Positions 53,530 to 56,903 of a stretch of 64,000 bases of DNA are shown piece after piece. Each line of letters starts with the position of its first letter. The first letter of the stretch is position 1. A model generated the notes under the pieces. The model did not search any database. It had not been told where the DNA came from and worked only from the letters and a program-made list of their open reading frames with translations. The translations under genes were made by a program, and so were the position numbers. The stretch spans positions 78,444 through 142,443 of the forward strand of contig JADJJZ010000029.1 in the NCBI GenBank assembly GCA_016706255.1. Direction: 5' to 3'. Source of the stretch: Bacteroidota bacterium. Its GTDB lineage: Bacteria > Bacteroidota > Bacteroidia > Chitinophagales > BACL12.

Positions 53530-55326
53530 ATGAAAATATTAATATCTTATTTAAAACCACACAAGCTGCTGGTTTTCTTTGTTCTGGCACTGGCCGCAAT
53601 CAATACAGGGTTTTCTTTAATGGACCCTATCATTTTAGGTAAATTGGTAAATCTTGCTGCAGATTTCAAACAACACGAAGCTTCATACGACTGGAAACGC
53701 TATTTCAACTCATTTTCATGGAATAGTCCGGGTGTAATTATGTTGCTGTTGGGTTCAGTAACAGTTGCCATGGTAAGCCGTATTGCCAAAAATTTTCAGG
53801 ACTATTTCCTCAATGTGATTATTCAAAAATTTGGGGCTAAGGTGTTTACCGATGGTTTACAACATGCCATGAAATTACCTTATCAGGATTTTGAAGATCA
53901 AAGAAGTGGCGAAACCTTATCCATTTTAACGAAAGTTCGTACCGACGTTGAAAGATTTATGAACATGTTTATCAATGTGCTTTTAGGTATACTAGTTGGT
54001 GTTGTTTTTGTTTTCGTTTATGCGGCTTTATTTATTCACTGGTATATTCCGGCAGTATATTTTATTGGTATTATTTTGTTAACAGTGATATCAAATGTGC
54101 TGAGTAAAAAGGTGAAAATCATTCAAAAAAATATTGTTGGCAAAACTACTGCCTTAGCTGGTGCTACTACTGAATCGCTGCGCAACATTGAATTGGTAAA
54201 AAGTTTAGGTTTAACACATCAGGAAGTGGAGCGGTTAAATCAAAATACCTATAAAATATTGGGCTTAGAATTAACAAAAGTAAAACGTATCAGAAGTATC
54301 AGCTTTATACAGGGAACATTTGTGAACACATTGAGACAAATTATCTTATTTATTTTAATGTGGCTGATATTTAAAGATTCAATGGATGCAGGGCAATTAG
54401 TTACCATGCAGGTATTTTCATTTTTTGTATTTGGACCATTACAGGATATCGGAAATATTATTTTATCCTATCGGGAAGCTGAAGCATCGCTGAACAATTT
54501 TAGTACGTTGATGAATAAAGTACCGGAGGCTCATCCTGAAAATCCTGAACAACTTGGAGATATTAAATCACTTCAGTTTGATGATGTACGTTTTCAACAT
54601 AAAACTGCAAATAATCCTGCTATCGATGGAATTAGTTTTGATGTAAAGCAAGGTGAAACTATTGCATTTGTTGGTCCTTCAGGCTCGGGAAAAAGTACGC
54701 TGATGAAATTGTTGGTGGGCTTGTATCGTCCGCAGGAAGGCAAAATATTATATAATAATATCGACGAAAATTCAATTGATTTTAATGATTTAAGAAATCA
54801 GATAGGATTTGTTACACAAGACACGCAATTATTTGCAGGAACCATTAAAGAGAATTTATTATTTGTAAATCCACAGGCAACTGAAGCTGATTTATTGGAT
54901 GTAATGCAGAAGGCTAGTTGTAATAATTTGCTTGCACGCGCAGAAAAGGGAATTGAAACGGTTATTGGTGAGGGCGGCTTAAAATTATCAGGAGGGGAGA
55001 AGCAGCGATTAAGTATAGCGCGGGCGTTGTTGCGCAGGCCGCGTTTATTAATTTTTGATGAAGCTACTTCTGCTTTGGATTCTTTAACGGAAGAGGAAAT
55101 TTCGAATACCATCAGAGATATTTCAATTCATGGTGAGCAGATTACCATATTAATTGCACACCGATTAAGTACAATCATGCATGCAGATAGAATTTATGTG
55201 CTCGAGCAAGGTGAAATGGCCGAAACCGGAACCCACGATAAATTATTGGAATTAAAAGGTCTCTACTACGCCATGTGGCGCCAACAAGTAGGCGAACGCA
55301 AAAAATTCACACCTACGATTGTTTAA
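53530..55326 (+). CDS. ABC exporter, fused permease/ATPase (MsbA-like type)
   Basis: 598 aa with a 6-TM N-domain, Walker A GPSGSGKST, signature LSGGEKQR and Walker B LLIFDEATSALD. Confidence 0.9.
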   Translation: MKILISYLKPHKLLVFFVLALAAINTGFSLMDPIILGKLVNLAADFKQHEASYDWKRYFNSFSWNSPGVIMLLLGSVTVAMVSRIAKNFQDYFLNVIIQKFGAKVFTDGLQHAMKLPYQDFEDQRSGETLSILTKVRTDVERFMNMFINVLLGILVGVVFVFVYAALFIHWYIPAVYFIGIILLTVISNVLSKKVKIIQKNIVGKTTALAGATTESLRNIELVKSLGLTHQEVERLNQNTYKILGLELTKVKRIRSISFIQGTFVNTLRQIILFILMWLIFKDSMDAGQLVTMQVFSFFVFGPLQDIGNIILSYREAEASLNNFSTLMNKVPEAHPENPEQLGDIKSLQFDDVRFQHKTANNPAIDGISFDVKQGETIAFVGPSGSGKSTLMKLLVGLYRPQEGKILYNNIDENSIDFNDLRNQIGFVTQDTQLFAGTIKENLLFVNPQATEADLLDVMQKASCNNLLARAEKGIETVIGEGGLKLSGGEKQRLSIARALLRRPRLLIFDEATSALDSLTEEEISNTIRDISIHGEQITILIAHRLSTIMHADRIYVLEQGEMAETGTHDKLLELKGLYYAMWRQQVGERKKFTPTIV

Positions 55327-55352
55327 TTACACTTATAATTTCGCTGCCTCAA

Positions 55353-55568
55353 AATTAATTTGAAGTATGGATTTTTAATTTGTAAAATAAACAACCGAAA
55401 CGTCGGAGAACACGGGGAAAGGCACGCAAAGTTCATAGAGATTATTGTGTTAAATTCGAAATAATAATTTCAGCAGTGTTTAAAATATGATTGCTAAAAA
55501 AAAGTTACAAATAATTTCTCTATGATTTCTGTGTGAATTTCCTCTGTGCACATTATGGTTTAAAAAAC
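55353..55568. repeat. Hairpin-forming repeat unit U1 (degenerate copy), left flank of the GxxExxY gene
   Basis: It aligns end to end with 56047-56258. The arms ggagaacacggggaaaggcacgcaaagttcatagaga and tctctatgatttctgtgtgaatttcctctgtgcac are imperfectly complementary around an AT-rich loop. Confidence 0.7.
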
Positions 55569-55575
55569 TATCTTA

Positions 55576-55950
55576 TTATGAATTAATAACTCTTCTAATA
55601 CCATCCTTTAAAAAAAGTGTATTAAAATTTATTAATAATCCTAATTTAAAACCGCCTAATTTTACATAGGTTAAGGCTTGTGCTAAATGAACATCATTTA
55701 AAACATCGACACTTTTGATTTCAATTACAAGGCATCTTTCAACAACTAAATCTGCACGATAACCACATTCCAATTTTACATCTTCAAAAACAACCGGAAT
55801 TGCTTTTTCGCATTCAACATGAAAACCTGCCTGTTTAAGTTTATGTGCCAAACAGGCTTTGTAAGTGCTTTCCAATAATCCAGGACCTAATTGTTTATGG
55901 ACTTCTATAGCAATTCCAATAACTTTAGTTGCAATATCATTTTCTTTCAT
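55576..55950 (-). CDS. GxxExxY protein (PD-(D/E)XK nuclease-like family)
   Basis: 124 aa with GLLESTYKACL (the G-x-x-E-x-x-Y motif) followed by DLVVERCLVIEIK (a D...ExK-like core). Confidence 0.8.
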   Translation of the reverse strand: MKENDIATKVIGIAIEVHKQLGPGLLESTYKACLAHKLKQAGFHVECEKAIPVVFEDVKLECGYRADLVVERCLVIEIKSVDVLNDVHLAQALTYVKLGGFKLGLLINFNTLFLKDGIRRVINS

Positions 55951-56046
55951 ACATTTTTTTTTAGGGTAAACAAAGATTTGAAAGTCCCTAAAAGAAATTG
56001 ATTTGAAATCTGTGTTATAAACCTTAAGCGCTTACATCCTTTCCGA

Positions 56047-56258
56047 AGTTGAATTTGAAGTGTTGATTTTATTTTGTAAAAACAGCCGAAACCGCAAAGA
56101 ACACAGAGAAAATACACGCAAAGTTCACGGAGAATATTGGTTTAAATTAAAATTACTACCCACAATTTTATTTGAAATTTGATTAATTAGCAGATTACGA
56201 ATAATTCCTCTGTGACCTCTGCGTGTATTTTCTCTGTGGACTCCGTGGTTAAAAAAGC
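56047..56258. repeat. Hairpin-forming repeat unit U2 (well-preserved copy), right flank of the GxxExxY gene
   Basis: Arms 56092-56134 and 56205-56248 are complementary at 33 of 43 positions by my count, including a perfect 19-bp core cacagagaaaatacacgca (56102-56120) / tgcgtgtattttctctgtg (56220-56238). The loop is about 70 nt and AT-rich. Confidence 0.75.
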
Positions 56259-56267
56259 AATGTGATT

Positions 56268-56338
56268 AAGGCACAAAAAAAACCACAATAAATACGCTAA
56301 ATATTTTTGTATTTTTTTTGTGGGTTCTTTTGTGCCTT
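56268..56338. repeat. Long inverted repeat (possible terminator of the 56358-56903 gene)
   Basis: aaggcacaaaaaaaaccacaa (56268-56288) and ttgtgggttcttttgtgcctt (56318-56338) are complementary at 19 of 21 positions, with a 29-nt loop. It lies 20 nt downstream of the minus-strand stop. Confidence 0.5.
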
Positions 56339-56357
56339 TTGTTTAACAAAAAAACAT

Positions 56358-56903
56358 TTACCTCGCTTTCGTATAAATACAAATCTGGTCGCCTTCGTGT
56401 TTGATGAAAACGATGTTTGCGGTGGCGTCGTAGCGGGTGATGGAGCCATCGGAGTTGCGAACATTTACAAAACCATGGGCAACTAAAATGTTAACAGTTA
56501 ATGGATAACATTCTTTTTTTACAACTCCACCCGGCAACGCAGAAAACGTTTCCATTAAACCTGTCGTGTTATTGTAGGTAAATGCCAAAATCATATTATC
56601 TGCCAATACAACTGTTCCGCCCATATCCGATATATCAGTAGTACCAATTATAATTGATCCCGTATCTGAAATATCTGTGGTGCCAATAGCAACAGCACCT
56701 GTATCTGAAATATCGGTAGTGCCAATCGTTTTAGATTGCTGGCCGGTTTTACCAATCTGTATTACATAGTTGTCGCCCGAATGGGTAACCTGAAACGCCT
56801 CTGCCGAAATTTTTACCGGTTGTGTTTCAGTTGGTTCGCATGAAGAAAGCCACCATCCCAGCGCCAAAGCCGACAGCAAGGATAAAATTTTAAAATTTTT
56901 CAT
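56358..56903 (-). CDS. Lipoprotein with three tandem 13-aa repeats (hypothetical)
   Basis: 181 aa with the lipobox LSSC (MKNFKILSLLSALALGWWLSSCEP) and the repeats IGTTDISDTGAVA / IGTTDISDTGSII / IGTTDISDMGGTV. Confidence 0.6.
   Translation of the reverse strand: MKNFKILSLLSALALGWWLSSCEPTETQPVKISAEAFQVTHSGDNYVIQIGKTGQQSKTIGTTDISDTGAVAIGTTDISDTGSIIIGTTDISDMGGTVVLADNMILAFTYNNTTGLMETFSALPGGVVKKECYPLTVNILVAHGFVNVRNSDGSITRYDATANIVFIKHEGDQICIYTKAR

Follow-up and report, generated by a model that had tools for sequence, protein, structure and literature searches.

A 64,000-nucleotide stretch of a Bacteroidota bacterium genome (Chitinophagales, BACL12; assembly GCA_016706255.1, contig JADJJZ010000029.1, positions 78,444 to 142,443 of the forward strand), referred to here as the window, contains a 1-kb intergenic gap in which a small GxxExxY gene lies between two related hairpin units, U1 and U2. 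We consider it probable that this gap is one copy of a mobile family made up of a GxxExxY nuclease gene and palindromic arms of CRCNRAG heptamers, and that U1 and U2 are gene-less hairpin members of the same family. Five observations carry this view: (i) the arms of U1 and U2 share the design of the arms that enclose most other GxxExxY genes, (ii) arms and gene enter short A/T-rich gaps as a single unit, in most cases ahead of a gene that runs in the same direction, (iii) gene-less remnants can arise in place by deletion, (iv) the U-type unit occurs alone and in tandem arrays in other Chitinophagales and Bacteroidota genomes, and (v) the nuclease retains its full set of catalytic motifs under purifying selection. 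The cassettes apparently form a widespread, selfish and undescribed family inserting in gaps between bacterial genes.

Gene, hairpin units and their relatives

The gap extends from the stop codon of an ABC-transporter gene (53530-55326, plus strand) to the stop codon of a gene for a 181-aa protein (56358-56903, minus strand). Along the plus strand it holds U1 (55353-55568), the GxxExxY open reading frame (ORF; 55576-55950, 124 aa), U2 (56047-56258) and a separate short hairpin, I2. U1, the ORF and U2 are assigned to the minus strand, and since the gene lies on that strand, U2 is upstream of it and U1 directly downstream. An initial annotation of this DNA had the ORF starting 8 nt after U1; it is the stop codon that is found 8 nt from U1, and the ATG is 96 nt from U2.

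The two units align end to end with their loops, as first described (U1 55357-55566 against U2 56052-56256, 72% identity over 211 columns, E = 2e-27), they have a tail of about 40 nt in common, and no third copy was found elsewhere in the window. U2 is the well-preserved unit. Its inverted repeat, first reported with arms matching at 33 of 43 positions, was recovered with coordinates 2-3 nt away (56090-56132 and 56208-56250, 43 nt, 81% complementary) and is closed by a 75-nt AT-rich loop. Each arm contains four words in the layout w1-NN-w2-AAAATA-w3-NN-w4 (AACC-ACGGAG-TC-CACAGAG-AAAATA-C(AC)GCAGAG-GT-CACAGAG). The perfect 19-bp core attributed to U2 is exact in both of its arms, at 56102-56120 (plus strand) and 56220-56238 (minus strand), and occurs in U1 at 55530-55548 with 3 mismatches, for a chance expectation of 0.01 matches. 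The view of U1 as a decayed version was likewise borne out by arms of 26 nt with 77% complementarity (55416-55441 and 55517-55542). Both units fold better than shuffled sequence on either strand (U2, z = -7.2 on the minus and -8.9 on the plus strand; U1, z = -3.5 and -4.0, respectively), and in both the plus strand, antisense to the gene, folds slightly more stably. When the 1-kb sense transcript is folded, I2, U2 and U1 each pair with themselves and no U1-U2 cross-pairing appears. The suggestion that the two units pair with each other and loop out the gene is therefore disfavoured here, although in most other family members the gene does lie in a loop, one formed by their own arms.

The identification of the ORF as GxxExxY is confirmed by matches to TIGR04256 (E = 3e-40, 137 bits for a cut-off of 35, model positions 2-116 of 116) and PF13366 (PDDEXK_3; E = 2e-39, 135 bits for a cut-off of 22), and an identical protein is annotated as a GxxExxY protein in a Chitinophagales metagenome-assembled genome (MAG). 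An AlphaFold2 model of the 124-aa protein has a predicted local distance difference test score (pLDDT) of 93.8. Its nearest solved folds in a Foldseek search are those of the Cas4 proteins SSO0001 and Pcal_0546 (E ~1e-3, TM ~0.5), LHK-Exo, lambda exonuclease and RecE; a sequence search of the PDB detected no solved structure for it. In 35 homologues the G24-E27-Y30 motif, D67, E77-x-K79 and Q91xxxY95 are invariant. E27 is the E of GxxExxY, and E, D, ExK and QxxxY together constitute the RecB/Cas4 motif set, the invariance of which makes the protein most likely an active nuclease of the PD-(D/E)XK type. The gene is intact and, judged by a ratio of nonsynonymous to synonymous substitution rates (dN/dS) of 0.09-0.11 against an 87% identical homologue, under purifying selection.

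The GxxExxY/PDDEXK_3 family comprises 18,319 clusters at 50% identity (E <= 0.001). Its best-scoring representatives (P0361-P0370) are 270-295 aa long and carry two GxxExxY domains in tandem, and these fusions of about 280 aa suggest a dimeric working unit that would be suited to a two-fold symmetric substrate. PADLOC returned no defence family for the protein at E <= 0.1, leaving the target/immunity arrangement of the initial annotation without support, and no PHROGs family recognises it.

Ten metagenome or MAG contigs carry the identical locus. The 87% homologue is found in a different context, adjoining a peptidase S9 gene (L011-L013), and is flanked by tandem hairpin units of about 200 nt, at least 2 upstream and at least 3 downstream; contig JANMLV010000047 (L158 and L154) has the same architecture. 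The presence of this gene with its units in two genomic contexts indicates that gene and units moved together. A pattern search for U-type units gave 29 matches in 185,579 genomes (596 Gb), a handful of them genuine, for a chance expectation that we estimate at about 35 (35 bits against 1.2e12 positions), and no match in viral contigs. The genuine matches are the locus of the 87% homologue, a solo arm in Taibaiella, two solitary gene-less units in another Chitinophagales MAG (L150, L175), and related tandem arrays in a Saprospiraceae MAG (L164, 1400-1800) and in the Bacteroidetes MAG nzgw130 (L166, 7600-8000; L172, 1-300). These arrays consist of short hairpins built from the words, with units of about 100 nt and about 150 nt, and contain no GxxExxY gene. 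In L150 the 3' arm of the unit has a perfect mini-palindrome, TCCCGATAGCTATCGGGA, nested within it on the minus strand. Eight U-type units keep a 33-pair consensus hairpin, in which covariation is uninformative.

Heptamer arms and insertion sites of the cassettes

GxxExxY genes at about 70% identity to that of the window lie in tight gaps between co-oriented housekeeping genes and are enclosed by inverted arms (L021, L022, L025), in the layout 5'-TTAACC-RC-RAAG-NN-CRCRAAG-(A/T-rich spacer)-word-NN-word...ATG-gene-stop...mirror image...GGTTAA-3'. An arm of this design has four CRCNRAG heptamers at fixed spacing and ends in TTAACC/GGTTAA. A metagenome scan with the protein alignment yielded 80 loci, 73 of them with enough flank, and the flank inverted repeat exceeded the 95th percentile of shuffled sequence in 57/73. 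Palindromic flanks of the CACAGAG/CGCAGAG type, which the initial annotation mentioned as frequent around such genes, thus do accompany GxxExxY genes, in five phyla. For the four-helix-bundle genes that it also placed in similar flanks, a simple motif search gave no match in the loci examined.

The four-word design of the U2 arms is that of L021, L022, L025 and the metagenomic loci, except that a 75-nt loop and not a gene lies between them. With four words per arm, U2 fits a definition of the cassette arms as three or more CRCNRAG heptamers in inverted orientation, and U1 is a decayed copy. Across the loci, the distance from a sense word cluster to the next antisense cluster is bimodal, with 21 cases at 3-149 nt (empty hairpins) and 39 at 365-621 nt (gene inside). 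Empty hairpins also stand beside gene-bearing cassettes in four loci (L206, L227, L235, L236). The gene of the window lies outside the arms, between two closed hairpins, a variant also seen in L011/L154 and in Gemmatirosa. In gene-bearing cassettes the end of the GxxExxY frame often extends into the 3' arm as far as its first antisense word (L206:2860-2912 and others), where the CTT of the last Leu codon also begins CTTTGCG, so that gene end and arm overlap.

The arm design extends beyond Bacteroidota. On a plasmid of Sphingomonas parapaucimobilis (L265, 482491-483647) the fatty-acid synthesis operon is interrupted precisely between fabD and fabG by a cassette with arms TTCACGCGAAG.../...CTTCGCGTGAA made of GC-rich CGCGAAG words. 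In Treponema the inverted repeat ACACGGATTCG/CGAATCCGTGT brackets the gene, and the Gemmatirosa gene, like that of the window, has a complete empty hairpin behind it. Within Bacteroidota, Bacteroides finegoldii shows the arm-gene-arm layout downstream of radA. A distant GxxExxY gene on a plasmid of Fusobacteria bacterium ZRK30 (L268) has direct repeats of about 45 nt (..CAGATTTAATCCGTGTACCTAT..), not inverted arms. The general arm motif, TAACCACRRAGNNCWCADAG, was also found in at least 120 stretches of viral contigs (L028-L107), mostly as solo arms placed directly before phage gene starts, often with ATGA ahead; a few empty hairpins of 77-146 nt occur there and GxxExxY genes are almost absent. 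A search for other cargo inside the arms was unproductive, as three scans of viral contigs with gapped patterns yielded 1, 0 and 0 matches and the ORFs behind arm clusters in Bacteroidota loci were GxxExxY or artefacts.

A clean insertion was seen between a DUF1015 gene and yggS. In Paenimyroides aestuarii (L021), arms and gene fill the 465 nt between the DUF1015 stop and the yggS start. The same spacer measures only 4-9 nt (AATT, CATT, CGATTAAAT) and bears no trace of an arm in three relatives with 80-83% identical DUF1015 (P. aquimaris, Flavobacterium sp. xlx-214 and a metagenome contig), from which it follows that the arms arrive together with the gene. In the closest relative (86%), a 51-nt spacer consists of a decayed 3' arm (ACTTTTTGTAATACTTAAAAACTTTGTTGTTAA) and a fragment, without the gene, so that gene-less relics can arise in place. 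This clean insertion polymorphism of a sister cassette, together with the recurrence of related units and gene in another context, supports the mobile cassette listed among the possibilities of the initial annotation.

The termini of the elements read TTAA-CC in 28/53 and GG-TTAA in 32/53; their commonest variant, TTTA-CC...GG-TAAA, is inverted and not direct, and TTAA may be either a target-site duplication or a portion of the arm itself. The gene is co-oriented with its downstream neighbour in 41/46 loci (binomial ~4e-8) and with its upstream neighbour in 34/46 (binomial ~1e-3). The window gene, which converges on the ABC-transporter gene, belongs to a rare orientation class. Orthologues of this transporter gene (84-90% identity) are followed by gyrA, without the units or the GxxExxY gene. 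Synteny breaks right past the transporter stop (window 55327 onward against L177/L179), with gyrA on one side of the comparison and the cassette and unrelated genes on the other, and a rearrangement may coincide with the element at this locus. The U loops were also considered as gene remnants, as expected of miniature inverted-repeat transposable elements (MITEs) formed by internal deletion, and local alignments with the gene were at shuffle level (z = -0.3 to 0.9). For the empty hairpins of L206, a weak signal of a gene remnant (p = 0.01-0.02) comes in part from arm sequence.

Several further features of the gap were examined. The leader between U2 and the ATG (55951-56046, minus strand) probably carries the expression signals of the gene. 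The 96-nt leader and the tail of about 40 nt behind each unit are also conserved in the locus of the 87% homologue (window 56030-56123 against L011 208-307, 74% identity). A decayed mini-hairpin suspected in this leader (55951-56030) shows word-like remnants and folds like shuffled sequence (z = -0.3), and was discarded. I2 (56268-56338, strand unassigned) is a 71-nt hairpin of CACAAAA-type words, with arms of 34 nt (56268-56301 and 56305-56338, 79% complementary, 3-nt gap) where a 21-bp inverted repeat had first been reported, and with a strong fold (z = -7.5 on the minus and -5.4 on the plus strand). We take it either for a stem of the terminator type or for one more short relative of the arm family. 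On the plus strand its hairpin is followed by UUUUGUUU, resembling an intrinsic terminator facing the ABC-transporter side. A scan for sigma-70-type promoters and terminators stayed at shuffle level and found no terminator-like site in 55200-56500. Rfam 15 at gathering score gave no match in the window or in 13 related loci, where sub-threshold hairpin look-alikes alone were seen, and the window contains no rRNA, the neighbours being protein-coding. The octamer AAACAGCC recurs in the central spacer of the 5' arms of distant elements and, as AACAGCCGAAACC, at the termini of U-type units, as a one-sided conserved motif (L022, L230, L011 units, L150; window 56078-56090).

Possible recognition words, RNA stems and competing explanations

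What the arms are kept for was approached through 57 elements. The outer word (positions 1-9) is paired in 49-57 of the 57, the NN dinucleotide pairs in 17/57, which is the chance level, and 29/57 show pairing at position 4 of the second word, a variable position. Agreement at variable word positions is 0.87 within an arm, 0.89 between opposite arms and 0.49 between different elements; it is 0.92 for true pairing partners and 0.92 for non-partner words of opposite arms. Since partners agree no better than non-partners, the apparent covariation of the arms reflects word homogeneity and not base-pair compensation. As far as sequence comparison can tell, such homogeneity favours recognition repeats over a selected RNA stem. 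Reiterated recognition sites, such as the subterminal repeats of transposon ends, would be expected to show it, and concerted evolution of the repeats would have the same outcome. Homogeneous words guarantee a stem in any case. By our own count, G.U-compatible mismatches at word positions number 26 in the sense and 36 in the antisense direction, and our attempt to assign a functional strand from this asymmetry failed, as there is no sense-strand bias and the antisense strand is slightly more stable in the window. Word type tracks the protein tree, requiring 8 changes where permuted labels require 21. Only the extreme C-terminal protein columns correlate with word type, a trivial association, as their codons overlap or abut the 3' arm.

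These results bear directly on an explanation at the RNA level, in which the element would resemble the intervening sequences (IVSs) of rRNA: arm stems would be cut by RNase III or would stabilise transcript ends, the inserted ORF would be excised or insulated, and insertion in an operon would be cheap. The 5' and 3' ends of the GxxExxY mRNA would then carry U1 and U2 as hairpins for processing or stabilisation. The structured RNA proposed by the initial annotation is possible, in that U1, U2 and I2 fold far better than shuffles. Moreover, the minimum free energy and centroid structures of a typical cassette both enclose the whole ORF in the two-arm stem (z = -5.5), the anatomy matches that of the Coxiella 23S IVS, and the cassettes lie in operon gaps, co-oriented with their neighbours. 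Other results speak against the RNA-level explanation: mismatches show no sense preference, the antisense strand of the window folds better, partner words agree no more than non-partners and NN pairing is at chance, covariation in U-type units is uninformative, the window gene is not enclosed in a stem and Rfam offers no match. We regard this explanation as possible, if rather unlikely, and as compatible with the mobile family and not exclusive of it.

The units could instead belong to a host repeat family of the repetitive extragenic palindrome (REP), bacterial interspersed mosaic element (BIME) or Correia type, serving as terminators, mRNA stabilisers or protein-binding sites among which the gene landed or which it prefers as targets. 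Word-built hairpins lacking a GxxExxY gene (the arrays L164 and L166/L172, the solitary units L150 and L175) and the abundance of solo arms in viral contigs agree with such a family. It is nevertheless improbable in our judgement, because the empty DUF1015-yggS sites are armless, so that arms come with the gene, because gene and units travel together between two contexts, and because the window contains a single cluster, unlike a dense host repeat, and no terminator-like site in the region scanned. Least credible of all is an integron-like array with U1 and U2 as attC-like sites for a tyrosine recombinase. The directly oriented hairpin-gene-hairpin order of the window does resemble attC-ORF-attC, the palindromes are imperfect with unpaired spacers, and relatives contain hairpin arrays. 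However, attC sites are 57-141 nt long and the U hairpins, at about 160 nt, are longer; the U2 termini, TTTTAAC and GTTTCGG, do not fit RYYYAAC and GTTRRRY; no integrase was found among the four neighbouring genes scanned; and a gene held within a single split palindrome, the arrangement in most of the family, is not that of an integron.

We thus return to the mobile cassette family. The mechanism we consider most likely is that the arms are the recognition ends of the element and that the predicted nuclease acts on them. The heptamers would be recognition repeats, as in transposon ends with subterminal repeats, and not a selected RNA stem; the encoded nuclease, probably as a dimer, would act on the arms or on their hairpin or cruciform form, thereby moving or maintaining the element; and the gene would usually be expressed by read-through from host transcription. 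A number of points weigh against this account. U-type units are rare, their pattern matches being close to the chance level, and no high-copy dispersal was seen. The layout of the window, with the gene outside the arms, is that of a minority and is not explained by this account. The arm motif is widespread as solo copies in viral contigs that lack a GxxExxY gene. None of the core protein residues tracks word type (CAC versus CGC), making it less likely that the protein recognises the words of its own element. The U loops contain no detectable gene remnant (z ~0), and U1 and U2 are therefore not derived from this gene by simple deletion. Finally, no clean empty site was found for the window locus, because synteny differs in the ABC-transporter orthologues and leaves no usable empty allele.

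A stronger version of this account, which we put forward tentatively and hold to be doubtful, would see in the cassettes an autonomous class of mobile elements crossing phyla. A minimal Cas4/RecB-like nuclease dimer would read the CRCNRAG words, or the hairpin or cruciform, and drive insertion or copying of the cassette into intergenic gaps, and gene-less hairpins such as U1 and U2 would be non-autonomous derivatives. Such a mobility enzyme would have no relation to the DDE, HUH, tyrosine and serine recombinases.

Comparison with known systems

In the literature searched, GxxExxY/PF13366 is named only in passing, with nothing on the biology of the family, and no relevant paper shows the arm sequences. 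The combination of a minimal Cas4-like nuclease, heptamer-built arms and operon-gap insertion across phyla is undescribed in the literature and libraries that were searched; the kinds of element it resembles, namely inverted-repeat cassettes, MITEs, intervening sequences and homing genes, are already known. Four traits mark the family: stereotyped palindromic packaging, insertion as a unit in the gaps of housekeeping operons (fabD-fabG, DUF1015-yggS), purifying selection and hairpin relics. They provide a very large protein family, without assigned function and with hardly any literature, with a concrete and testable mobile-element hypothesis, and account for a class of long intergenic hairpin repeats of Bacteroidota that break metagenome assemblies. 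Should the nuclease itself mobilise the arms, this would be a new mobility mechanism; an action of the arms at the RNA level would instead carry the principle of rRNA intervening sequences over to mRNA operons.

The GxxExxY protein shares with Cas4/RecB nucleases their fold and the motifs E, D, ExK and QxxxY, at the modest level of the Foldseek scores (E ~1e-3, TM ~0.5). It differs from them as a bare 124-aa core without an Fe-S cluster module, and its gene has neither a CRISPR context nor a PADLOC match. Free-standing homing endonuclease genes include PD-(D/E)XK enzymes such as I-Ssp6803I. Like the cassettes, homing genes are small nuclease genes between conserved co-oriented genes, with polymorphic presence in close relatives; they lack the terminal inverted arms of GxxExxY cassettes, the empty allele of which, in addition, has no arm-like target.

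In REP/REPIN-RAYT systems, too, a gene is flanked by palindromic repeats that are possibly its substrate, and copies of the repeats that lack the gene are found, both as single units and as arrays. However, the GxxExxY protein is a Cas4/RecB-like PD-(D/E)XK nuclease and not an HUH Y1 transposase, its units measure 80-210 nt against 20-40 nt for REP, and the cassettes are clearly inserted, in contrast to vertically fixed single-copy genes. MITEs and mobile insertion cassettes resemble the GxxExxY cassettes in their terminal inverted repeats, small size and lack of a transposase gene, as well as in having gene-less and gene-bearing forms, A/T-rich intergenic insertion sites and presence/absence polymorphism. 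The GxxExxY cassettes differ from MITEs in having no known cognate DDE transposase, four subterminal heptamers per arm and, in the sequences sampled, a low copy number, with two units in 64 kb and few genuine matches in the genomes searched.

The closest anatomical parallel is offered by the 23S IVS of Coxiella burnetii, a 444-nt element with a 28-bp terminal stem and the S23p ORF inside, which is excised by RNase III (PMC4990558). Both are elements of about 450 nt in which a terminal-repeat stem of about 28-36 bp surrounds one small ORF, and both are sporadic, horizontally acquired and regarded as selfish. For the GxxExxY cassettes, the counterpart of RNase III excision is only the predicted thermodynamic feasibility of the stem. 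They lie between protein-coding genes and not in rRNA helices, their ORF encodes a PD-(D/E)XK nuclease where that of the IVS encodes a four-helix bundle, and their arms consist of reiterated heptamers, which in the window form hairpins with the gene outside.

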